From a virus (Duplodnaviria; Caudoviricetes), in the IMG/VR virus record IMGVR_UViG_3300025282_000046, positions 1-52,044 of that record: a DNA stretch of 52,044 nt; one strand, given 5' to 3'. The position numbers and the translations under genes are program-made. A model generated the notes under the pieces. That model was not told the DNA's origin. It searched no databases and was given only the letters and a program-made list of their open reading frames with translations. Shown in pieces: positions 1 through 50,231 of this stretch; position 1 is the first letter of the stretch, and the number at the start of each line of letters is the position of its first letter.

Positions 1-1
1 A

Positions 2-130
2 GTAATTAGATGGGATTTACCCCCTGATTTTAATAAAACTAAACACCAAGAAATAACCCCCACTCATACTAAGGTCTTTACGCCTACAGATGAAGATCTA
101 GACGAGGTATTATTTGACAACGAAACATAG
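2..130 (+). CDS. 3' end of a truncated hypothetical protein (VIRWDLPP...FDNET*)
   Basis: Open frame from the window edge to TAG at 128-130, directly upstream of the RBS of the next gene. Confidence 0.6.
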   Translation, partial: VIRWDLPPDFNKTKHQEITPTHTKVFTPTDEDLDEVLFDNET

Positions 131-139
131 GAGAAACAC

Positions 140-1036
140 ATGACTCAAACACAGGATATAGCGGTAGGAAAAACAGGAGCCCAAAAGTTTAGTGGTTTAG
201 GTTTTTCAGGACAAAAGATGGTGCATCCACCGGGACAACTACTAGGATTACTAGTAGGAATGCCGGGGACAGGTAAATCATCTTTCTTACAATCAAACCC
301 CGATGCATTCATCATTAACACCGATGGAACATCTACAACAAACCCTAACCCACAAGCCTGTATATGGCCCGGAGTTACAGCATTTGGTGAACCAATGGAT
401 GTGGGTGGTGCTTCAATGGTTCTTACATGGGATGAGGTTCTCAAAAAGAAAGAACAACTAATTAAAATGGTAGGTTCTAATACACAGAGACCACAAACTA
501 TTGTACTTGATAGTCTTGGACCTTCAATTCAACTCATGAAAGACTATGTTACCAAGAAAGCAGGACGAGAGAACTGGAAAGATCTCGATGGTCGAAGAGC
601 ATGGGATGATGTCTATGATGGACTACTCCGATTTTCATTAGACCTCCGCAGACACGGCTATGGATTCTTCTATGTATGCCATCTCGTAAATGCAAAGATT
701 CCACTAGGTGATGACCGATATACTATCAGACCCGAACTCACAATAACCGATTCGTTCTATAAAAGACTGTTCCCGATGTTCGAACTCGTTGCAGCATTTG
801 AATCCGATTGGGTATCCGAATCAAAACAAATACAAATGAAAGGCATCGGAGGAAAACCCGGACCAAAGAAAACCGAAACCGTAAAAACACAAAAATATTA
901 TATGACAATTAACGATGAGGCCCTTGCGGGAATCACTAAATGTCGTGTACAATTACCCGACCGTATTGAACTTCCACAGGAGTCTGCGTGGACTTCATTC
1001 GAAGAACAATACTTAACCGCTCAAAAGAAGGATTAG
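140..1036 (+). CDS. Sak4-like / AAA_24 P-loop ATPase (phage ssDNA-annealing recombinase)
   Basis: Walker A GMPGTGKSS, Walker B-like TIVLDSL, YVCH motif; AGGAG RBS; followed by an SSB-like gene as is usual for sak4. Confidence 0.75.
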   Translation: MTQTQDIAVGKTGAQKFSGLGFSGQKMVHPPGQLLGLLVGMPGTGKSSFLQSNPDAFIINTDGTSTTNPNPQACIWPGVTAFGEPMDVGGASMVLTWDEVLKKKEQLIKMVGSNTQRPQTIVLDSLGPSIQLMKDYVTKKAGRENWKDLDGRRAWDDVYDGLLRFSLDLRRHGYGFFYVCHLVNAKIPLGDDRYTIRPELTITDSFYKRLFPMFELVAAFESDWVSESKQIQMKGIGGKPGPKKTETVKTQKYYMTINDEALAGITKCRVQLPDRIELPQESAWTSFEEQYLTAQKKD

Positions 1037-1041
1037 CATCT

Positions 1042-1566
1042 ATGAGTATCAGTAACGAAACGAAGGCAGTCTTCGCACAAATTCAAAACGATTTCGAAGC
1101 CGCAAGCGCAGATCAAGGAATGGGATCATTAGGAGAATGGCCACCTAAAGGTGAACATGCTTGTTACGTTCTCGGAGTCAACGTACAAAATGGAACCTTC
1201 CGACAAACAGACGACAAGCAAGAATTTCCAGCGGTAACCGTACAATTCCATTATCAACTCTGTGAAGACCCAGACCGCACAGAACCATTGATCTGGAATG
1301 GTGCACCAATGACAATTCCTAACGATGCTTCGGTACTAACACACGAAGGTTCTCAAATCCGTGCCAAAATCGAACTAGGTAGATTAAAAGGACACCTCAA
1401 AACCATACTTGGTTATGAGCCAACAGACCTAGGTTCAGCATTTGAAGAAGTAGAAACCAAACTAAATGGTGACTCTACTATTGCATGTATGATTCGATGT
1501 AACTATACTGAACGAGGCACAACCACTTACAAAAGTGAGTACCTCCAAACACTACTTGGTGGTTAA
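1042..1566 (+). CDS. Putative ssDNA-binding protein (DUF669-like OB fold)
   Basis: Start moved to ATG 1042 (MSISNET); 'WPPKGEHACYVLGV' resembles the P-x-G-x-Y-x-x-x-I start of phage SSBs; follows the Sak4-like ATPase. Confidence 0.55.
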   Translation: MSISNETKAVFAQIQNDFEAASADQGMGSLGEWPPKGEHACYVLGVNVQNGTFRQTDDKQEFPAVTVQFHYQLCEDPDRTEPLIWNGAPMTIPNDASVLTHEGSQIRAKIELGRLKGHLKTILGYEPTDLGSAFEEVETKLNGDSTIACMIRCNYTERGTTTYKSEYLQTLLGG

Positions 1567-1587
1567 TAAATAGAACCCCCACTCTTA

Positions 1588-2316
1588 GGGCTCCCCGATT
1601 CTTCCCGATGACGGGAGCCCCATTTAGTAGGTACCTTCTGTAAGGTCATGTGCCTTTAGGCTGGGCTGAACTAATATAGACATTGTGCAGCCTACTCCAT
1701 CACTCCTTTGTTGCTCTTAGTTCATTCAATAGGTGTGACTCGACTAGTTATCGTCACCTATTGCAGAGGGTATCTACTAATTGAGGGGCATTTAATAGAT
1801 ACCTTATACGGCACCTATTAAGACGGTAGGTTAGGCGTTGCTTCCTAACTGAGAATCTTATTAACCCACAAAGGGGTGCCACAATCTAAGGGGAGTAGTA
1901 ATTTGAGCTGGAACTAGTGAAGCCTAATAAAACAGCCAGCATAGGCACGTTGCTACTCCCCACCAATCCACGCTTTAATAGCGGATCAAGAGCCTAGCGA
2001 GGTTGAATCTCCAATGAGGGGAAGGCTCTCCGCACCAATCTAATACCTGTGTCCCGTACCTAGGGACTGCAAAATGAACGCTCTGATGAATGACACCCCG
2101 CTGGATACAAGGGTGATTGGTAATCCAGGTTTAATTACCGGGAGGGTCAATGCCTAATAACAATTCACTTCTTGTTCATCGCAGGTATAATATAATAGGG
2201 GTGGGCAGCTGGAGCATGCAGTTAAATAACTATAAACAGCTACCCCACCCCATAATTTATGTGTAACCACGGCTAGACGGGTTCACGGAGATAATCTTGG
2301 CATCTCCGGCACATAT
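1588..2316 (+). ncRNA. Array of tandem structured RNA modules (or one large ncRNA) of unknown class
   Basis: No ORF >=60 aa. Seven consecutive stem-closed modules: 1588-1620, 1624-1780, 1810-1884, 1890-1965, 1981-2037, 2043-2188, 2198-2251, plus 2258-2315. Closing-stem mismatches are G-U on the + strand. Confidence 0.7.
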
Positions 2317-2351
2317 AGCCCTCACTAGTAGAGATATTAGTGGGGGTTTTT
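2317..2351 (+). terminator. Intrinsic terminator closing the structured array
   Basis: 14-bp stem AGCCCTCACTAGTA / TATTAGTGGGGGTT with G-U pairs, GAGA (GNRA) tetraloop, T run. Confidence 0.7.
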
Positions 2352-2392
2352 GAGATAGTAGTATTAAACAATTCGTGTAGAATGGAGGAATC

Positions 2393-3808
2393 ATGTCAAG
2401 ATATAGAGCCACTAAAGCAATGATCGAATCTCTTAAAGGATTAGATACATCTATCGCGGCACAGAGAGCCCGTGTCCATGCCGCTATGACATTTGAACCT
2501 AAATTACTCTACACGGCAGGGACAAACTTAAAGGGAATACACGGTAAAGGAGGGGCTTTATTTGCGAGGGAATCTTTTGGATTACCCTTAGGTAAATTTG
2601 AGGGTATCCACGGTAGAACCATAGCGGTACCCACAAGAACAGGACCTCCCATAACTACTTTACCAGCAGAAGAAATTAGACAATGGCTCTTAAAATATAG
2701 AAATACTATGCAATCAAACCCTGACAAGATTGCGTTGTTACCTCCTATTGGAATGGGTAATGCAGGTATAAAATCCGATGTAATGTTAGGAATGATGGAC
2801 GATGCGGGGCTAATGCAAATGGGAAAACAAATAGTACCCACAGCCGAGATGGTAGGCAAAGGATTCCCGGAAACCGCAGCACGTTTACGTCTAATTGAAG
2901 GAATGAAAAAAGCACAAGGAGGCACTATGCCTAAAGTTACTACATCGTTTGTGGGGCCTATGAGCTTCCCTATCATGGGAGCAAGAACCGTCAAATCAAG
3001 AACTACCTTTAATGCCATTACAGCAGGTGAACGAACCATGACAACACGCAAACTTGGACAAGGATGGGAGGATCTTAAAGTAGGAGATGTATTTCCTATT
3101 ACAGGTAAGGAGGGTCAAACCCAACTAATAAAAATTACACACGAACCTGTAATACATACTGTTACAGGTAAAGAATCACAGGCGTTTCTAAATAGATGGT
3201 CTCAACTTGAAGGTCATGGACCAGAACAATTCAATAGGATTTTTAAACCAGGACAAAAAATAACAATGGTTAAATATAAATTTGGAGGTAAATCAGTAAT
3301 ACATTCTGGGGGTGCAGATGGAGCAGATACTGTGTTCCAAAATGCTGCGTTAAAAAAAGGACATGAGGTACAAGCCCACTCTTTTGCAGGACATGCAAGA
3401 GGAAACAGTGCAAGAGTAGAACATTCTCTTGCAGAATTAAAAGAAGCAGATGTCTACCTTCACAAGGCCAATCAAACTCTTAAAAGAAGATTCCCGGCTA
3501 GTAATGAATATGTAAATAATCTTCTAAGAAGAAACCTATATCAAGTTAAAGATTCAGATCAAGTGATTGCAGCAGCACCTATTAAATATGGTCAGGTACA
3601 AGGAGGTACTGCATGGGCTACTCAAATGGGAATTGATATGGGTAAACCAGTATTCGTCTTTGATTTAAAAACAAACCAATGGATGAAGTGGGTAGGTAAT
3701 GCTTATGTTCCATCCTCAGCACCTTCTTTATCCGCAAGTTTCGCAGGTATAGGCTCTCGTAAAATAACAAAGGTGGGGGAAAAAGCTATAGAAGATCTAT
3801 TCACTTAA
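2393..3808 (+). CDS. Multidomain protein: basic N-terminus + ASCH/PUA-like domain + SLOG (YspA/DprA-like) domain
   Basis: ASCH-like 'FNAITAGERTMTTRK...LKVGDVF'; SLOG motifs 'IHSGGADGAD', 'LLRRN..QV.DSD', 'GGTAWA...GKPVFVFD', 'FAGIGSR'; GGAGGA RBS. Confidence 0.7.
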   Translation: MSRYRATKAMIESLKGLDTSIAAQRARVHAAMTFEPKLLYTAGTNLKGIHGKGGALFARESFGLPLGKFEGIHGRTIAVPTRTGPPITTLPAEEIRQWLLKYRNTMQSNPDKIALLPPIGMGNAGIKSDVMLGMMDDAGLMQMGKQIVPTAEMVGKGFPETAARLRLIEGMKKAQGGTMPKVTTSFVGPMSFPIMGARTVKSRTTFNAITAGERTMTTRKLGQGWEDLKVGDVFPITGKEGQTQLIKITHEPVIHTVTGKESQAFLNRWSQLEGHGPEQFNRIFKPGQKITMVKYKFGGKSVIHSGGADGADTVFQNAALKKGHEVQAHSFAGHARGNSARVEHSLAELKEADVYLHKANQTLKRRFPASNEYVNNLLRRNLYQVKDSDQVIAAAPIKYGQVQGGTAWATQMGIDMGKPVFVFDLKTNQWMKWVGNAYVPSSAPSLSASFAGIGSRKITKVGEKAIEDLFT

Positions 3809-3824
3809 CATAAGGAGAACAACA

Positions 3825-4325
3825 ATGCATAGACCATGTGATAAATGTACGGAAATGTGTGATCTTAGTACAGGATTAACTAGGTTTGACGATTATGTTT
3901 ACTGTAGTAAGTGTTGTAAAGAATTAGAAATCTGTACAGAATGCAGCGATACATTAGGAGACGGTTCGTGTTCAGAGTGTCTAGAAATACAACGAACTAA
4001 AGGTAGGTACGAAAAACCCCAGGGGAAGGAAGAAAATAAAATGAAACATAAAATCGTAACTGTATGTGACGGTGAAACGTGGGGAGATCTACACCACGCC
4101 ACCGTTATTGTATTCCCAGCAGAACAACTACCCATGCTTGATTGGGCTGATAAACTCCCACGAGGTGAGTATGAAGGCGAAGAACTTTGGGACTATAAAG
4201 AGTATGACCTTGACGAGTATATCCATATGCAAGTCATGGAGAGTTTAATCCAGCACGGAATAAAGAACGAAGAAACAAGAAAGCATATTGAAATTCACGG
4301 GAGCCCCTTCGATGAGACAAAGTAA
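3825..4325 (+). CDS. Hypothetical protein with Cys-rich (Zn-finger-like) N-terminus; possible internal start at 4041
   Basis: Four CxxC pairs; AAGGAG RBS. Confidence 0.6.
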   Translation: MHRPCDKCTEMCDLSTGLTRFDDYVYCSKCCKELEICTECSDTLGDGSCSECLEIQRTKGRYEKPQGKEENKMKHKIVTVCDGETWGDLHHATVIVFPAEQLPMLDWADKLPRGEYEGEELWDYKEYDLDEYIHMQVMESLIQHGIKNEETRKHIEIHGSPFDETK

Positions 4326-4623
4326 ATTTCATAGGGACATAGATCCCCTTTATGATCTATGGAAGATATCTAAAAGAAACCCTAACTATTGGGTACTAAA
4401 ACATATAAATGAATCAGAACATGAAGTACTGCATTTGGTATACACTAAAACAGATGTCGAAGAAAATTCAGGAAGAAATTCACCCCGTAAATTCACCGAC
4501 AAAGAATGGGATAATATCGTGGGGGAATTTAATAGTGTGGAGTTTGATCATGTCTGGGAGATAATAGAAGACTGTGCATCAGAAGTAAAACGCAAAGGAG
4601 AATCAAATGACAAAGACACTTAA
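4312..4623 (+). CDS. Hypothetical protein
   Basis: ATG at 4312 overlaps the previous stop; GGAG upstream. Confidence 0.55.
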   Translation: MRQSKFHRDIDPLYDLWKISKRNPNYWVLKHINESEHEVLHLVYTKTDVEENSGRNSPRKFTDKEWDNIVGEFNSVEFDHVWEIIEDCASEVKRKGESNDKDT

Positions 4624-4780
4624 AAAGTGGGGGATTAGAGTTCGAGGTAAGTGGTGGGTACAATCAGCAGATCAAGATGCTACCTACTATATGAAACGTG
4701 AAGCCCAAAAAGATGCCGACGATTTCAACAACCTCCGATTAGATAAAGAAAAAGTCTACACGGTAGAAGAATATAAGTAG
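4607..4780 (+). CDS. Small hypothetical protein (57 aa, MTKTLKKWGIRV...), not in the ORF track
   Basis: AAGGAG RBS before ATG 4607; open to TAG 4780. Confidence 0.6.
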   Translation: MTKTLKKWGIRVRGKWWVQSADQDATYYMKREAQKDADDFNNLRLDKEKVYTVEEYK

Positions 4781-4803
4781 TTATTACTGTATACTTTAAG
4801 TAC

Positions 4804-4893
4804 ATGAACAACCCTGAGCGAGATAGAATGCCTATGAGAATTGCTCTCTTAGGAATCATTCTAGCCTTGTTCTTGGTAAGATTCTTCCAATGA
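4804..4893 (+). CDS. 29-aa membrane peptide (MNNPERDRMPMRIALLGIILALFLVRFFQ)
   Basis: TATACT 8 nt upstream of ATG; single hydrophobic helix; ATGA overlap with the next gene. Confidence 0.45.
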   Translation: MNNPERDRMPMRIALLGIILALFLVRFFQ

Positions 4894-5309
4894 AATACAC
4901 AGAGGTCCCTGTATTCCCCCTTATTACTAGTGGGAAGGTTGATTCTCCTACAGATCCAAAGGCGAGATGGAAACTAATCGTCTCTGTGCCGACCCGCACA
5001 TTAGCCACCCCCACTTCTCAACAGAGTCATGCGAGACTCTTTGGAGTGGGGGATTGGTTAGTGGTTGTATGGGCTAAAAAGGAAGGCATCTCTAGGAAGG
5101 CCGAGATTACCCTGTACGAGGCTTCTAAGGGAGACATACCTCCGAGGGTAGATGTCTTTGGAAACGTTCGTATACGAACCCTCAGTAAGCAAGATTGGGT
5201 CTCTCTAATAGAAGTTCAATTACCTGCCGGACAAACTAGAAATTGTAGATACTCTGGGGCTATTGTGGAGGGTGCAGCATCTATCCAAATATGGACAAAA
5301 GTGCAATAG
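4890..5309 (+). CDS. Hypothetical protein
   Basis: 139-aa ORF; last + strand gene before the convergent late operon. Confidence 0.55.
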   Translation: MKYTEVPVFPLITSGKVDSPTDPKARWKLIVSVPTRTLATPTSQQSHARLFGVGDWLVVVWAKKEGISRKAEITLYEASKGDIPPRVDVFGNVRIRTLSKQDWVSLIEVQLPAGQTRNCRYSGAIVEGAASIQIWTKVQ

Positions 5310-5359
5310 CCACAGGTGCTGGTCTACAAATCACAATATATCTAGGCCAAAACAACATT

Positions 5360-6580
5360 TTATTTTTGAGCTCCAAGTAGCGGAAGCATTAAGGATAAGA
5401 GGAGCAAGGGGAAAGTTAACTTCCTCACAGAACCCACTCTAAATTGTTTAGCTTCAGGAGATTTTTTTACTATTTCCCTATAAAAATCTGCATATCTATT
5501 TTTACCTCCCGGTCCACTGCTTAAATTAGTAAGTAAATCATCAAGATGTTCTGCTTGTTTTATACCATACCCCTTTAAATATTTAGGAGGTATAGCTTTT
5601 CCAGCTTGAATTTCACCGAGTATAGCTCTTTCAGGGATAAGAGTTCTAGCTATTTCAGGAGATGTTATATATCCTTTCTTAATTAATGTAGGAAGATCTG
5701 CTTCAACTAAAAAAGGAGCCTTTTTATAACCAGGTAATCTAGATGCATCAGGACGACCTATATTAAAAAAAGCACCTCTTGCAGAATTAGGTTCATCCTT
5801 CATAAACCTAGCCACCTGTATTAAATTCATATCTTGATGCCCAGGCCCTCCCATTTTTAATCCTTCCTTCATTACGCCTTTTAAATTACCAGTGTAATGA
5901 TACCCTTTAGTACCGGGTAACATACCAGCACGATCTACATTAGGATTCGAGATGGACTTAGCTACAGACATTATATATTTTTCTCGTTCATGCTCTCTTA
6001 AAGCCCAATCAGCAGCCAATCTCATCATTCCTAAATTACGCTTCTTACCCTTCCAAATAGGATCTATTATATTTCCTAATGCAGGATTTACCTTTCTTCC
6101 TTTCATCCGTAGAATATCTCTATTTCTAAGTTGTTCTAAATACTCCCTTCCTAATGTAGATTTGGCTGCTTCTCTAAATGTTTTACCTCTAAGAGAAGTA
6201 AACGGGCGGGAAGGATTTTTAATTTTAAATGCTTCAGCAACTTTATAATTAATACGCCCTACTCCAGGCATTCTTCTTTGATAGGGAAGTCCTGTTTTAG
6301 GATCTACTAATTGATTCCAAGTTCCCATTTGAGCAGGAATCTCTATGCCACCGCCCCTACCTCTTGCCCCAAGTGCAAAATCAGATCCTTTAAATAATCC
6401 AACATCCCTTTGAGTTGCAGGAGAAGGTAAAGGAAAACCTTTCTGTAATAATCTAGACCTGTTTGAAGAGGCTTCTCTTGCCATAGTAGACCATTGTTCA
6501 GGAAACCACCCACTAGAATATTTATAAAGATCTTCAAGGATCTTTTCTACTATTTTTTCATGAGGAGTTATTTTAGCCAT
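5360..6580 (-). CDS. Basic protein with ADP-ribosyltransferase-like domain and C-terminal hydrophobic tail
   Basis: 'GYHYTGNLKGVMKEGL...FLVEAD...GEIQ...IPPKYL' matches the YH(G)T..I..EGL...IPP.YI pattern of Tpt1/KptA/DarT-like ART folds; tail KLTFPLLLLSLMLPLLG. Confidence 0.55.
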   Translation of the reverse strand: MAKITPHEKIVEKILEDLYKYSSGWFPEQWSTMAREASSNRSRLLQKGFPLPSPATQRDVGLFKGSDFALGARGRGGGIEIPAQMGTWNQLVDPKTGLPYQRRMPGVGRINYKVAEAFKIKNPSRPFTSLRGKTFREAAKSTLGREYLEQLRNRDILRMKGRKVNPALGNIIDPIWKGKKRNLGMMRLAADWALREHEREKYIMSVAKSISNPNVDRAGMLPGTKGYHYTGNLKGVMKEGLKMGGPGHQDMNLIQVARFMKDEPNSARGAFFNIGRPDASRLPGYKKAPFLVEADLPTLIKKGYITSPEIARTLIPERAILGEIQAGKAIPPKYLKGYGIKQAEHLDDLLTNLSSGPGGKNRYADFYREIVKKSPEAKQFRVGSVRKLTFPLLLLSLMLPLLGAQK

Positions 6581-7349
6581 CGAACAATTCTACGTGAGCA
6601 TCCCAATCTGAAGTAGAGGGTCTACGAGGTTCCGACAAGGAAGCCTCACCTCTAACAATAGCAGCACCCCACCCCGAAGAATCCTTACGATTCATATAGT
6701 CAGGATTGAGGGGTCCCATCGTACCCGCATTAGCGTAGTACCACGGCAGCTTTATTTTAAGGGTTCTCTTGCATTGTTCAACCCCCACTGTAGGTCTATG
6801 GGTATGACCCCTTATAAATAATCTATGGGCGTGACCGCCCGCCATCTGTGCCATTTGTATGGTTTCTAATTCATCGCTATTAATTCCCGAATCAAAGCCA
6901 TGATAAAAATGAACCTGCCCTAATTTATACATACCCTTTTTAGATTTTGTATAGGGTATCTGCTTCCACTTCGTAAAAAGTTCACCAAATTCATAATGCT
7001 TATTCCACGACAACAAGGAACGCAAACCCCGAGGAGAACGCCTCGGATCTTTGGCTAAAATATTATCGTCATGATTCCCATGAATCCAAATTAACTCAAC
7101 TTCCGGGGGCAATACAGCCATAATATCTGAGAGGTACCGATGACCCCGCTCGTACTCGTCCTCGAGAGCATGCTCGAACTCGTGAGGGTGAACCGAGACC
7201 GAACTCGCATCGAAGAGGTCACCAAGCATTATAAAATGAGTGGGGGAAGAGTCCGAGAGAGATGCAAGCATCCACTCCTTAGCCTCAAGATTTTCAAATG
7301 GTGTGTGTATACATGATATCGCTGCGAAAGTTGCTTTTATTGGTTCCAT
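6573..7349 (-). CDS. Calcineurin-like metallophosphoesterase
   Basis: Motifs SCIH (D replaced by C), LGDLFD, GNHD, FYHG, GHTH. Confidence 0.85.
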   Translation of the reverse strand: MEPIKATFAAISCIHTPFENLEAKEWMLASLSDSSPTHFIMLGDLFDASSVSVHPHEFEHALEDEYERGHRYLSDIMAVLPPEVELIWIHGNHDDNILAKDPRRSPRGLRSLLSWNKHYEFGELFTKWKQIPYTKSKKGMYKLGQVHFYHGFDSGINSDELETIQMAQMAGGHAHRLFIRGHTHRPTVGVEQCKRTLKIKLPWYYANAGTMGPLNPDYMNRKDSSGWGAAIVRGEASLSEPRRPSTSDWDAHVELFDG

Positions 7350-10300
7350 GTTTGAAACGGATTAAAACCCTGCTCCTCTATTGGTAGTTCCTGTTGTTCC
7401 TGTTTTTTCAAGTGTTTCTTAATCTCTTCGATAGTAGCAGGATCTAATTTAACAGGTGAAACCCTAGAGGCTCCTGCTTTAGTTCGTTGACCAGAAGTTT
7501 GACCCGCCAATACTTGCTCTTCGGTTTCTATACCTAGTCGTTTGTGTTCTTCAGCAAGAGTGCTTTGATATAGATGTTTGTATTCGGAAGGAATAGTATT
7601 GGCTATACGTTCTAACCGTGCAGTCTCAAGGTTACGCATCCTGCTACGCCATTGGGACTTAGAAATTTTCAGTGGAACATTAAACTTCTTCTTGAAGTCT
7701 GTCTCTATGCTTCGTGCTTTAGATATATTATTAGCAATCAAAGCATTCATATAATCACTTTCCATCTGTATAATTATCTCTCTTTGCTTTGCTAAGTAAC
7801 CATCTACCTCTCCCGCTTTAGGGTGGTTCTCTAAATCAATACCTAAACCCCTCATGACAATAGCAAAAGGTTTCTCGTAATTGACTAGTCTACCGTCTCC
7901 CGTAAACACAGGATGATGACCGTCAGGAGTAGTAGTGCTCCAATCAACATGAGTCTTTTGCATCTTACTAGCAAGGTCTGGTAAGAAAGGCGAATCTCCT
8001 AATTGAGGTAGCATACCCATTGCCCTTGTAAATGCTATCCCCCCCGGTACAAGACCAGGAATAGAAGACTTAGCAAATTCCATATCTCCCATGCCAACCT
8101 TTACCATATCTAAAGGAATCGCCACTACAGGTGGTACCCATCCACCCCCCATTACCTCAAAGATAGGATTAACCCCCACTCCCCTAGAAACATCCTTGTG
8201 TCCCATCTCTTTAAATACTTCGTATGCAAGTGATCCTGTGCCCATTACCCTCAAGAGGTCTGCTGTGTAGTGACCACCCCAAATTCTTTTTCCTCCTAAA
8301 AAGGGTACTCCCTCTTTGAAGTATCTATCAGGAGAAATTTGTTTACCTGTCCTAGCATAAGAAGTAAAAGATCTAGCCAAGAAACTTAGAAACTGACGAC
8401 CTAAAGCATTACCTACAAGACCACCGACGGGACCCTTACCTAAGAATGCAGAAGGCATGTTCATAGGTGTGCCACCAAACTGTGCTTCCTGTACAAATCT
8501 ACGGGTGTCTGTTAACCAATTAAAGAAGTTCATCTCGTCTTTGTCCCACACACCACGAGGACGCTTCATTATATTAACACCTGCTTTTCTATAAATTCTA
8601 TCTACAGTATGAGCAGACACGAGACGGTTCATAAGTTCAGCTTTCTCGAAGAGCTTCATGGGAAGGGTCATAGATAAGAAGTGACCCATCCCCTCCTTCT
8701 CTAAAGATTGAACACCTGCATAGGTAGCACCGTCAATGTTTGCAAATACATTTGGTTGTACCCCGAGAAGATCACCAAAATCATCAACGTGTTTGAAGTG
8801 TTTCTTCATTAACTCAGCACGTTTAGCATCAGAAATTCTCAAGCCTAATGGATATCTTTCTTTTGCATACGACATTATTTCTTTGAATGCTGATTTGTAA
8901 GCGGGGAGTACATTATTAAGACCACCCCACATGGCAGCATGCAATAAAGGTTGCATCATGTTGAGCATAACACTCATCATATTTGCACCAAGGAAACCCA
9001 CATAAAGACCCTTAGCCATTGAACCACTAAGACTCTCGTAAGTAGACATGTTCCTAAGATTACTAATAAACTCTTTACCGTGAGAACCCCAACCCTCAAT
9101 TGTTTTTCCTATTCTTCCGTTAGCAAAAGCATTAACCGTCTCATGAGTTCTAATTTGTAGGCCCCTCATTACACCATGTTCAGGAATTCTACGACTAGAA
9201 ATATGTGGAAGAATGGTTTCCTTAAATAAATCGGCACTGTATCTATTATTCATCGCGGCATATTGGTGGGTCATTACATCTCCCAATGTAACACCTCCCG
9301 ATGGTCCTGGTGCTTTACCTCTAACTATGTCCTCAAGAGTAGTAGACATATCCACACGTTGAAATTCTTTTACAGTAGCTTGAGGTGCACTTGATGATTT
9401 TGTTAGAATGTTACTATCTCTCATACTAGTATTCATATTAAAGATATCGTCCATAGTAGAACCGCCACCCGCAGGTAATCCACCCTTACGGATACGATGA
9501 TCCGCTGCAACAATCTCCATCCAAATCTTAGGGTCAGCAACCATCCCATTACCTGCTGGATTTCTAACAGCCTCAACATCATCGTATATTTTGTGAGGAA
9601 TATTACGGCTATAAATTTCAGAGGTATCCTTCATATACCTACCGTGACTTGTTACACCATCAAGCGTATACGAATAAGTAGCGACCCCACTATCGGAGTT
9701 CCTTACAATCTTTTTCTTAGCACTACGAAGACCCGACCTTAAAAGATTAGCGGTTTCACCAGAACCACCATGTAGATTGTTCATTTCCATTAACCACTCG
9801 TAATCTTCAGGGTGATAATTTCTAGATGCAGATGCTCTAGGTGCAAGTCTATTTAAACTCGAAAGGTTCTCAGCACCCGCTATACCTTGAGACCTCATCA
9901 CACCCATGTCTCTACCACCATAATGTATACCTGTATACGGGCTTATCATTGCGGTATCTTTAAAGGTATTACGAGGAGCATAAGTACCGTTCTTGTAATA
10001 AGAATTAACTGTTCCCCTAATCATCTCCTTGAACAATTCTTTCTTCCTACCTACTGACAAACCAACAGTTGAAGAAGCAAACTCGTCCATGGGAAGAAGA
10101 GTTCTAAGGAAGTCCATACCTTCAGCAGATTCCCATAATTGAGCGGCTTTACCCTTACTAGGATCTACCGCTGAAATAATTGTTTCGAGTTTGTCATCAT
10201 CAAATATAAATTGTCTTTCACCTTTTGCATTCCGGAAGCCACCAGAACTGTAAGCAAGATCATCCCCAAAAAGCATAACCGCCCTATGATTATATGATGC

Positions 10301-43501: not shown

Positions 43502-43851
43502 GGAAGTGGATCGCCCCTATTTTTAGCCTAAAAAGGGACATGAAAAAAATGAGATTTTGAAGATTCGAAGGGTTGTGTTAATTTGGGGGGTTTACGGTTG
43601 GGTGAGGTGAGGAAAATTGTATATAGGGTGAGGAATTCCTAGACAGGATCGGTGTTTCGTAATGACCACAGGCAAACACCTAGGGGGCTTCGGGGGTACC
43701 CAAGTTTACGTCGGGAAGGGGACACGGAAGGAACGCTACGCTGTGGACTCACGTATTTCGTCACTGAAGTGACGAGGAACGGGAACTCGGGAACCACAAA
43801 CCACAACTAACTACACACGGAGTCAGACTATTACCTTGTTTTAAGAAGGAC

Positions 43852-43916
43852 ATTTCGCATCACCATACTTGCTCCTTCATCGGGGCAAGCCCTCTTCGGA
43901 GCGGTGATGCAACAGT
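43852..43916. repeat. Structured element, copy 1 (ATTTC-GCATCACC-ATAC...C-GGTGATGC-AACAGT)
   Basis: Flanks conserved in three copies; 8-bp stem. Confidence 0.8.
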
Positions 43917-44072
43917 CGGGTTCGGGTATATTTTTTGATTTTACAGTCCAAATCTGCTAGTAAGACCACAATCTACACGCTCTTGATTGAGAGTAGATGC
44001 GAACATTCACTAATTCGTTAGAGTGGCAAAGATTTAGACTTTTATTTACGCATGACATATGCATGCACCAAA

Positions 44073-44121
44073 CTGACCTAAACACGTCAGTAGTTGAGTA
44101 ACCAGTCTCATCAAACTGTTT
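44073..44121 (+). ncRNA. Pseudoknot motif copy A (with inserted hairpin)
   Basis: CTGAC-CTAAACAC-GTCAG...AAAC-TGTTT. Confidence 0.5.
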
Positions 44122-44123
44122 TT

Positions 44124-44199
44124 AAGGGGTAGATACAACAAGGTGAAAAACAACACATTTTAAGTGATTACAGCACTCTTCGTATCTACCCTTTTTTTT
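44124..44199 (+). terminator. Long stem followed by T8 (terminator/attenuator-like)
   Basis: AGGGGTAGATAC / GTATCTACCCTT, then TTTTTT. Confidence 0.45.
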
Positions 44200-44205
44200 A
44201 TAATG

Positions 44206-44270
44206 ATTTCGCACAACCATACAGGTCTCGACTGCGGGTAAGACCTTGTCTTCGACGGTTGTGCAACAGT
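44206..44270. repeat. Structured element, copy 2 (ATTTC-GCACAACC-ATAC...C-GGTTGTGC-AACAGT)
   Basis: Compensatory changes relative to copy 1. Confidence 0.8.
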
Positions 44271-44327
44271 TGTTATTGGGTGAATTTTTTGTTTTTTTAT
44301 CATAATCTAATCTAAAGGAGTATTATT

Positions 44328-45475: not shown

Positions 45476-45724
45476 CTTTGGGGAAGGTAAAACAAATAAC
45501 TAGAATTTTATATTCTTAACAAATAAAGGCTGACGAGCCTGTGGGTGGCTGAATAATCACTTGGAAAGGTGATAAAGCACACATTAGTCTGTAGTAGACT
45601 GTCCAACGACCAAGTGGTAAAGGACATACTCCTAACCGAGTTTGATGTGATATTCTGGCGATAATACAAATAGTATTTCCCTCTGGAATTGCAGGTAAAC
45701 TTTATCCTGCCCCACACCATATTT

Positions 45725-48744: not shown

Positions 48745-48975
48745 ATGACAAAGGAACAAAAATATCAATTGTGTAAATTGATAAAAAACTTACAAGGTAA
48801 CCTTATAAAGTTACATGCAAACGGAACAACCGGAACTATTATGGATGAGTCTTTAGATATACTCAACCAATTAGTAGGTTGGCTCGTAATCTCAGGCATC
48901 GAGAAAGAATACAATGAAAAACTCGATGAACAAGCAGCAATATCAGAACACGAAAATTGGAGACAGAACTCATGA
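48745..48975 (+). CDS. Hypothetical protein
   Basis: AAGGA RBS. Confidence 0.55.
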   Translation: MTKEQKYQLCKLIKNLQGNLIKLHANGTTGTIMDESLDILNQLVGWLVISGIEKEYNEKLDEQAAISEHENWRQNS

Positions 48976-49790
48976 AACGTCACAACTGTAATGAATACGT
49001 AGAGTATGAAGACCTCGCAACCATACCTCTACCACCAGCAAGAGATAGATTCGTGCCTATGGCACATCAAGACCTATTCGATAGAACAGTAAAGAACCTA
49101 TCAACACTAAACTACGAACCCGTAAAACCTAGGTTCTTACTTGACCACACAAAACAAAAGTTTATAGCCACATTTGGTATTAAACAAAGTGCAAAGGCAT
49201 TTAGTAGTGGATCTGTAGATCAATTTGCAAACAATGACTATCAATTTGAAGTAGGTCTAATAAATAGTAATGATGGCAGCATGGCAGCCAAACTATTCAC
49301 AGGTACCCGTGTATTCGTGTGTGCCAACGGTCAATGGTCGGGTGAAGTAGTTCTCTCCCGTAAACACACTCGTAACGCAGGTTACGACATCAACCGCGGA
49401 CTCCGAGACTTCGTATTCGAACTCGAAGACACTCGCAAAGAAACCTTTGCAAACTTTGATAGACTTAAAGAATATGACTTTGGTAGTAAATCAGAAGTTC
49501 ATGATTTTATAGTTGAAACTTGCAATCGAAATATCCTTCCTTGGCAACACGCACCTAAAGTACTTGAACACTGGAATAATCCAGAACATGACGAATTTAA
49601 AGACCGCAATGGATATTGTTTATTCAACGCATATACATCACATTGGAGAGATGCTAATCAATTCTCTCTATCAGACAAAACAAAAAGATTAAGGAGTTAC
49701 ATCGATGAGTTCAAACAACCACAATACGTTGGATCAGCTGAACAAAGATTTGAAGAATCACCAAGATCAAATGGAATATCACCGTGGTGA
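48972..49790 (+). CDS. DUF932-family protein
   Basis: 'GLINSNDGSMA...GTRVFVCANG...RKHT' and 'LFNAYT' signature; start at MKRH (ATGA overlap). Confidence 0.8.
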   Translation: MKRHNCNEYVEYEDLATIPLPPARDRFVPMAHQDLFDRTVKNLSTLNYEPVKPRFLLDHTKQKFIATFGIKQSAKAFSSGSVDQFANNDYQFEVGLINSNDGSMAAKLFTGTRVFVCANGQWSGEVVLSRKHTRNAGYDINRGLRDFVFELEDTRKETFANFDRLKEYDFGSKSEVHDFIVETCNRNILPWQHAPKVLEHWNNPEHDEFKDRNGYCLFNAYTSHWRDANQFSLSDKTKRLRSYIDEFKQPQYVGSAEQRFEESPRSNGISPW

Positions 49791-49953: not shown

Positions 49954-50036
49954 GAACCAGTTTCCTCCTTTGACTCTGGTTTAGGAAGACTTCCTTACTT
50001 GTGGGAGTGAAGTCTATAATCTAAAGTCCCACTAAC

Positions 50037-50073
50037 GATCAGGCTCGTCCTCTGGATGGGTTTGGTCTTTTTT
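50037..50073 (+). terminator. Intrinsic terminator
   Basis: GATCAGGCTCGTCC / GGATGGGTTTGGTC stem with G-U pairs, followed by a T run. Confidence 0.65.
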
Positions 50074-50231
50074 TAGGGGAAACATAGCATTTAATTTCTT
50101 CCTACGTTCTTCACATTTAGAACAAGTAGGGATTTTCACAGCCTTAGTGAGCCTTTGGATTATATCCCCAAGACCCTCAATTGGTTGTTTGTCACTCTTC
50201 ACAAGGAGACTCCTTTATCTATAATAAAATA

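Follow-up and report, generated by a model that had tools for sequence, protein, structure and literature searches.

What occupies the longest stretch without an open reading frame (ORF) in the early region of this marine phage? The window, that is, the whole 52,044-bp stretch of DNA analysed here, is an entire viral record and is ~95% complete. Its + strand gene block runs from ~44.3 kb across the record's ends to ~5.3 kb, and the gap in question lies at 1567-2392 (826 nt), where there is no ORF of ≥60 aa on either strand; a preliminary description of this DNA had called 1588-2351 ORF-free. The small ORFs inside it are ≤51 aa, and it is the longest of seven such gaps in the window. The neighboring genes are these:

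140-1036, + strand: gene for a Sak4-like AAA_24 protein (profile matches)
1042-1566, + strand: gene for a 174-aa protein, here called SSB-like
2393-3808, + strand: gene for a 471-aa DprA-like/SLOG protein (family matches)

The SSB label is putative, its sole basis being the position of the 174-aa gene behind the Sak4-like gene; the protein has no match in Pfam, PHROG, or PDB. The gap had been placed between SSB and ASCH/SLOG genes; the downstream protein gives the DprA-like/SLOG match, and no ASCH domain was seen. Neither the gap nor positions 1-8000 matched the phage GenBank collection by blastn, a search for related loci with the downstream 471-aa protein returned none, and no RNA run is among the 24 listed runs carrying the sequence.

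Two other noncoding features of the window lie elsewhere. A second large ORF-free gap, 43527-44327 (801 nt), adjoins the primase gene, at the point where the − and + gene blocks diverge. Possibly a regulatory or origin region, it contains hairpins that resemble terminators and a pair of similar hairpin modules, at about 43855-43915 and 44208-44272. A full-length manA RNA motif (RF01745) at 45528-45720 on the + strand, scoring 73.8 bits against a gathering score of 55.2, is the sole gathering-level Rfam match in the window.

Parts and folding of the array

The preliminary description listed eight helices in the gap; all eight pair as described, with three G-U pairs in the second and two in the fourth. 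The 791-nt + strand folds at −268.3 kcal/mol, against −230.5 ± 7.8 for 20 dinucleotide shuffles, none of which was as good (z −4.87), so that the excess stability named as a check on the proposal is present. The − strand of the array gives −268.1 kcal/mol (z −3.79), and fold energies over 14 arrays showed no consistent difference between strands; thermodynamics therefore gives no choice of strand. Module by module, z ranges from −1.6 (M2 and M5) to −4.9 (M1). The parts are listed below, where L numbers, like the G numbers used later, are our handles for relatives.

1574-1583, + strand: copy of the 10-mer AACCCCCACT, just past the stop codon; inverted partner of 2339-2348; precedes M0 in all relatives
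1588-1620, + strand: M0, hairpin with a conserved loop, in every relative, including those without an array; z −3.06
1624-1780, + strand: M1, 20-bp closing stem (scaffold, conserved G-U) around a 117-nt variable cargo; stem arms in 17 of 22 distinct relatives; z −4.87
1785-1805, + strand: small hairpin or linker
1792-1803 with 1810-1821: alternative hairpin, a rival pairing to the M2 closing stem
1810-1880, + strand: M2, stem-closed module; homologues in L026 and in the RNA-polymerase lineage (L060/L089)
1881-1889, + strand: linker ACAATCTAA
1890-1961, + strand: M3, closing stem of the GGGGAGTAGTA type around a cargo of its own; z −3.48
1962-1980, + strand: linker ACCAATCCA and short lead-in; the same 19 nt precede M4 in L005/L036
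1981-2033, + strand: M4, three-helix hairpin module; covariation, both lineages
2034-2042, + strand: linker ACCAATCTA
2043-2188, + strand: M5, 146-nt multi-hairpin module whose pyrimidine-rich 3' tail is conserved
2189-2197, + strand: linker variant AATATAATA
2198-2251, + strand: M6, GGGGTGGG/CCCCACCC stem with a 38-nt cargo
2252-2257, + strand: linker variant ATAATT(TA)
2258-2315, + strand: M7, three-way junction with two invariant loops; found by a covariance model in 15 loci, both lineages
2317-2352, + strand: T, GNRA-capped hairpin and U-tract, of intrinsic-terminator form on the + strand only; −19.5 (+) versus −9.2 (−) kcal/mol

The hairpin of T (2318-2347) has the GNRA-capped terminator form first ascribed to it, a GAGA loop followed by TTTTT (−19.5 kcal/mol, z −5.7), and was not listed by a consensus terminator scan. 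There are no direct repeats of ≥12 nt in the array, so its modules are not copies of each other, again as first described. Its sole promoter-like site is a sigma-70-like one within M5 (2164-2191), which is lost in the L029 homologue of that module.

The 10-mer AACCCCCACT is a DNA signal specific to this lineage, and many copies carry an added CT. It has 32 matches in the window at ≤1 mismatch (17 of them exact), against 3.6 ± 1.9 expected, mostly within genes and on both strands (for example, at 55, 1574, 6780, 8171, 10808, 12793, 21991, 22438, 29426, and 50323 on the + strand, and at 2348, 10897, 23476, 29626, 36526, and 37801 on the − strand). Two inverted copies flank the array. Exact copies number 14 in G006 and 4 in G007, and the motif is absent from the RNA-polymerase lineage described below. 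Apart from this motif, antisense matches between the array and the rest of the window are only 10 to 13 nt long and at chance level.

Exchange of cassettes within the lineage

Searches with the Sak4-like and SSB-like proteins yielded 21 viral and 22 metagenomic loci, among which the region behind the SSB-like gene has 22 distinct sequences. In 17 of these, the gap opens with the M0 hairpin and the M1 stem arms, after which the sequences diverge completely; five distant ones (61 to 74% protein identity) have just an 80- to 90-nt gap containing M0. Arrays are 143 to 826 nt long in this lineage and 143 to ~940 nt over both lineages. Pieces of the window's modules reappear among relatives in differing order, and modules have been gained, lost, re-ordered, and nested independently. 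The M1 stem has at least eight unrelated interiors (modules of 66 to 157 nt in the variants that we folded), and the cargo that sits in the M6 stem in the window sits within the M1 stem in L010 and L029, so that an identical cargo is held by different closing stems. M6 as a whole module is found in L008/L033 and in L096 of the RNA-polymerase lineage. Homologues of M2 and M5 keep their outer helices and swap their tip hairpins: M2 of L026, in the same lineage, has its tip hairpin replaced and another inserted, and M5 of L029 keeps its core and tail with the sub-hairpins replaced. The M2 closing stem of L060/L089 differs by a compensatory G-C to A-U change. In L013/L023, the terminator loop is GAAA and the M7-plus-T block lies mid-array.

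Such reshuffling bears on the second option of the preliminary description, one large noncoding RNA like GOLLD or ROOL. A single structured RNA of that size class, or a set of hidden small protein genes, would agree with the size of ~770 nt and with the excess fold stability, and we consider both extremely improbable. Relatives share no architecture apart from M0 and the M1 stem, their arrays range in length from 143 to ~940 nt, and neither the window's array nor any of 15 related loci has an Rfam match. Pairing of 1573-1582 with 2337-2346 is part of the array's MFE structure, and we considered it as a closure of the whole array; it is not kept among relatives and is impossible in some of them because the terminator module lies mid-array there. 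As for protein genes, none of the small ORFs is conserved, and substitutions are compensatory rather than codon-like.

Modules are joined by a linker of 8 to 9 nt, ACAATCTA(A) or also ACAAUCUA(A), with variants ACCAATCTA and ACAATTTA. In a count that includes homologous copies, arrays contain the motif 30 times, where 0.7 would be expected, and its reverse complement not at all. Four related genomes show no enrichment of it elsewhere, and the scaffold stem motifs are restricted to the array locus. The anatomy of a cassette is a hairpin cargo with conserved loops inside a GC-clamped closing stem, with a single-stranded linker between one cassette and the next.

BLAST homology blocks end at module or helix-arm edges, and the breaks of variant contigs from four marine DNA runs (1783, 1889, 2035, 2181-2187, 2260-2267, 2318, and 2350-2356) are all at module boundaries. 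Breakpoints at linkers and stem edges are what an array acting at the DNA level would give, its linkers and stem arms serving as short homologies or as sites for an unknown recombinase, as in PeSL, NIME, and BIME elements. On that reading, none of the hairpins would function as RNA; the array would serve as a recombination junction that makes swaps of neighboring genes easier. Close relatives do differ in the genes downstream of the array, which adjoins the phage's own Sak4-type annealing gene, and the two strands fold equally. We regard DNA-level mosaicism without RNA function as a serious rival, though an unlikely one: it covers the reshuffling but not the conserved loops over covarying stems (see below), which plain homology tracts do not need, nor the orientation to genes, strictly uniform in both lineages, nor the 400 to 940 nt of cargo retained without any ORF in two lineages. 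The lack of repeated units in the array and the confinement of linker and scaffold motifs to its locus also speak against it.

Contigs G001, G003, and G005 end in or beside the array, and in one record array sequence makes up what appear to be inverted terminal repeats. Contig ends at the array are likely assembly breaks that stem from population-level heterogeneity of cassettes.

A second lineage with the same cassettes

The array is not confined to relatives of the window. We found a second lineage by scanning with the 15-nt M7 core and later with a hairpin-plus-linker pattern. Of 25 viral matches to the core, 13 stretches are true modules, and the other 12 loci have no second M7 motif adjoining and look like chance; a scan of genome contigs with the 19-nt M7 motif gave two matches, which lack module context, are within chance expectation, and were set aside. 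The phages of this RNA-polymerase lineage have records of 58 to 66 kb (~65 kb for near-complete ones), contigs otherwise without nucleotide similarity to the window, and no Sak4 or SSB homologue in the stretches searched. Their arrays are 530 to 940 nt long and lie on the gene strand in 9 of 9 loci. The seven loci that include both genes have the order DUF932 gene (PF06067), array, small ORF, and T7-like single-subunit RNA polymerase gene (PF00940); in two further loci, the array is upstream of the polymerase gene and the DUF932 side is beyond the locus. The polymerases share only 51 to 67% identity with each other, arguing that the arrangement is old in this lineage. The arrays hold M2-, M4-, M6-, and M7-type modules, the GGGGAGTAGTA stem family (which encloses more than 12 different cargos across both lineages), and the same linker. 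That of L088 folds better than its shuffles (z −2.34).

DUF932 recurs in the window's own lineage. L098, a distant relative of the window (primase 86% identical), has a ~250-nt array at another site, behind a DUF932-like gene (reverse strand, 6031-7330). The window's 277-aa ORF at 48957-49790 is a DUF932 member (25.3 bits to PF06067), homologous to the gene that precedes the array in L098, and the window's gap at 49954-50180 contains hairpins and a linker-like ATAATCTAA. An association of DUF932 with arrays is possible; no functional study of this family appears among the papers listed in the literature search. Among the stretches compared, the only protein families common to both array-bearing lineages are the DUF932-like one and that of a 57-aa ORF (4607-4780, + strand), which has 47 to 55% identical homologues in L088 and L096 of the RNA-polymerase lineage.

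A cassette that is absent from the window has a cargo loop of ~30 nt with three closing stems, at 458-531 in L089, 4395-4506 in L096, and 7184-7259 (reverse strand) in L098; the stems differ by many compensatory changes.

The gap in the window is one instance of a combinatorial array of structured noncoding cassettes, which at least two marine phage lineages, unrelated to each other, carry in their early gene blocks. Its place inside co-oriented early operons in both would also suit cis-acting elements of the mRNA: a long structured spacer in an early polycistronic message, with RNase III or RNase E sites and 5' and 3' stabilizers that would uncouple, time, or shield the expression of neighboring genes, among them the RNA polymerase gene of the second lineage, much as RNase III sites serve the T7 early region. 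Such a role fits the closing stems, which are long and perfect (20 bp in M1, ≥13 bp in M3), and the terminator form with which the array ends in the window and in L033. We think it distinctly unlikely, since processing sites need no 8 to 10 different cassettes with conserved loops, and neither the exchange of cargo among stems nor sharing between unrelated phages is required by it; moreover, distant relatives have M0 and an 80- to 90-nt gap only.

Evidence on selection for pairing and on strand

Covariation in homologues had been proposed as a check on the helices. Compensatory changes were found in M0, M4, and M7:

M0: 9 distinct sequences; 100% paired (main 8-bp helix); two-sided changes at 5 of 8 pairs; 0 of 500 shuffles score as high
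M7: 6 distinct sequences (15 loci); 98.1% paired in an alignment fitted to the covariance model; two-sided changes at 5 of 18 pairs; 0 of 500 shuffles score as high
M4: 4 distinct sequences, both lineages; 96.8% paired; two-sided changes at 3 of 16 pairs; 9 of 500 shuffles score as high

Both loops of M7 are invariant, and controls with slid partners were 14 to 65% paired. With four to nine sequences per family, a fitted M7 alignment, and shuffles that ignore relatedness, the covariation is good but not overwhelming, and it suggests at that strength that the helices matter. Compensatory change of this kind is expected of structured RNA; single-stranded DNA hairpins would show it too.

The preliminary description also took the G-U pairs on the + strand to point to RNA. 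Its helices were chosen with G-U allowed; a strand-neutral count is biased toward G.T. Isolated mismatches counted in this way are G.T in nine cases and A.C in one (p 0.02), and those in linker-delimited modules are G.T in nine and A.C in three; because the data sets overlap, some copies are homologous, and the counts are small, the excess is a moderate bias rather than proof. Like the linker (30:0), loops containing TATAAA are found on the + strand only (20:0). Only on that strand does the sequence read as a terminator with a GNRA loop, which is GAGA in the window and GAAA in L013, and arrays are co-oriented with their flanking genes in both lineages. Of 24 tetraloops, 3 on the + strand and none on the − strand are GNRA or UNCG, counts too small to weigh.

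Most pairs are Watson-Crick and the strands have equal energies, and on these grounds hairpins in double- or single-stranded DNA fit equally well. The G.T bias, the terminator with its GNRA loop, the TATAAA loops, and the co-orientation together favor a single-stranded molecule of the + strand. That molecule could be DNA, with hairpins formed in one strand during replication or recombination and used as priming, loading, or single-strand promoter sites, as are the ssi/Frpo elements of plasmids and small phages. Strand-biased G.T and compensatory changes would be equally expected of such signals, and Sak4- and SSB-like genes are neighbors of the array in the window. We find single-stranded DNA signals very unlikely all the same: they are normally conserved rather than combinatorial, the array of the second lineage precedes an RNA polymerase gene, and the stretches searched there yielded neither a Sak4 nor an SSB homologue, and GNRA loops and a U-tract terminator are features of RNA. 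RNA is the simpler choice for the + strand molecule.

Candidate identities

The array had been said to belong to no known family, and a search of 1400-2500 against Rfam 15, whose families include GOLLD, ROOL, HEARO, ribozymes, riboswitches, 6S, and C4, bears this out, returning three chance-level hits alone at E up to 10. ARAGORN finds no tRNA or tmRNA in the window or in the 22 related loci, and we rejected tRNA-like ends for the modules: ACCA starts some linkers (M3 and M4) and ACAA starts most. A CsrA sponge of the CsrB/RsmZ type was rejected on motif counts, GGA being depleted in arrays (89 versus 121.6 ± 8.3 in shuffles; z −3.9); CAGGA occurs 9 times versus 7.7. The linker is not a phage promoter, as CAATCTA is not enriched outside arrays in four genomes, nor do the TATAAA loops mark sigma-70 promoters, for, read by eye, they have no −35 or TG element at the right spacing. 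An origin or packaging site looks unlikely: the complete relative G006 has its array mid-genome, away from the terminal repeats.

A working model

At a probability of roughly 45%, we read the array as early, co-transcribed RNA cassettes that are cut at their linkers into independent small RNAs. We infer three steps: the + strand of the array would be transcribed together with the flanking genes; a host endonuclease, likeliest of RNase E type, with RNase III possible for the longest closing stems, would cleave at the exposed A/U-rich linkers; and the small RNAs so released, each protected by its stem, would work separately, using their conserved loops to decoy or regulate host factors during takeover or counter-defence. 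Gene-strand orientation, conservation of the linker, and the terminator form lend indirect support to one transcript cut between its units. The reshuffling of cassettes is itself observed; for its mechanism, we propose recombination at conserved linkers and stem arms, by which co-infecting phages would exchange cassettes and which would explain the patchwork of cassette presence and absence. Any function assigned to a single cassette would be a guess.

Several patterns argue for RNA: loops are conserved while stems covary, and the same cargo works in different stems; cassettes are independently present or absent and cross between phages that differ in nearly everything else; and the array lies where phages keep takeover and counter-defence functions. 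The polycistronic cassette of distinct small RNAs put forward in the preliminary description is a good fit to the comparative data, with independent modules, recurrence across lineages, and three modules that covary; its RNA nature we hold at the strength given above. A wider proposal, possible but doubtful, is that unrelated marine phages share a horizontally exchanged pool of stem-scaffolded RNA cassettes, lined up after an entry module that does not change and set apart by one cleavage linker, each RNA neutralizing or reprogramming a different host factor or defence. The pool would be an "integron-like" RNA counterpart of an anti-defence island.

Phage accessory regions are read almost wholly as protein genes. 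This locus spends 250 to 940 nt of early-region DNA on noncoding cassettes that are structurally constrained, conserved in their loops, recombined combinatorially, and common to phages that differ in their machinery for replication and transcription. Should the cassettes prove to be RNAs, they would be a new means by which phages keep and exchange small functional RNAs, and would provide a natural set of RNA scaffolds and a handle on host factors in uncultured marine systems. If they act as DNA, they make a clean cross-lineage recombination junction composed of hairpins only. On either reading, the locus accounts for the breaks in assemblies of these phages there, and the signature of linker and GC-clamped stem can be used to find such arrays elsewhere.

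Comparison with known systems

We found no description of such arrays in the open-access literature searched, and their nearest likenesses lie in several known systems. NIME of Neisseria and REP/BIME of enterobacteria are hairpin-rich, gene-free modular arrays with short conserved boundaries that are reshuffled between strains; they are multi-copy, dispersed over the genome, and often in both orientations. Here, in contrast, the window has one main array, in one orientation and without internal repeats, and its cassettes are common to unrelated phages. We rejected identity with REP, BIME, or NIME because the stem motifs occur at the array locus only, the linker is not enriched in four genomes, and direct repeats are lacking.

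Phage tRNA clusters (such as that of T4, with RNAs C and D), CRISPR arrays, and ToxI are tandem series of small structured RNAs on a single transcript, from which endonucleases release them at short spacers. Their processing logic is our working model, but their anatomy differs, as they are not known for the nesting of cargo in scaffold or the conserved linker seen here. An array of the CRISPR or ToxI type was rejected, there being no direct-repeat family of ≥12 nt; only the 8- to 9-nt linker recurs. The T7 early region has RNase III sites, single hairpins between protein genes. The likeness lies in hairpins between early genes and, in the second lineage, upstream of a T7-like RNA polymerase gene; in place of single hairpins, however, there are 250 to 940 nt of consecutive cassettes with no genes between them.

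In evolutionary behavior, the array resembles the PeSL (promoter-early stem-loop) elements of T4-type phages: short conserved motifs and stem-loops in early hyperplastic regions, with relatives that differ by insertion, deletion, and replacement between the motifs (Arbiol et al. 2010, PMC2839356). PeSL is one repeated unit, a strong sigma-70-like promoter with a terminator stem-loop, and its units flank small ORFs that are swapped. Our array has no repeated unit, one terminator form, and one nonconserved sigma-70-like site; it is noncoding modules that are swapped, with no ORF of ≥60 aa, and the cassettes themselves are diverse, covarying structured elements. We file the array as known kinds, processed RNA clusters and mosaic cassette arrays, set in a new variation.
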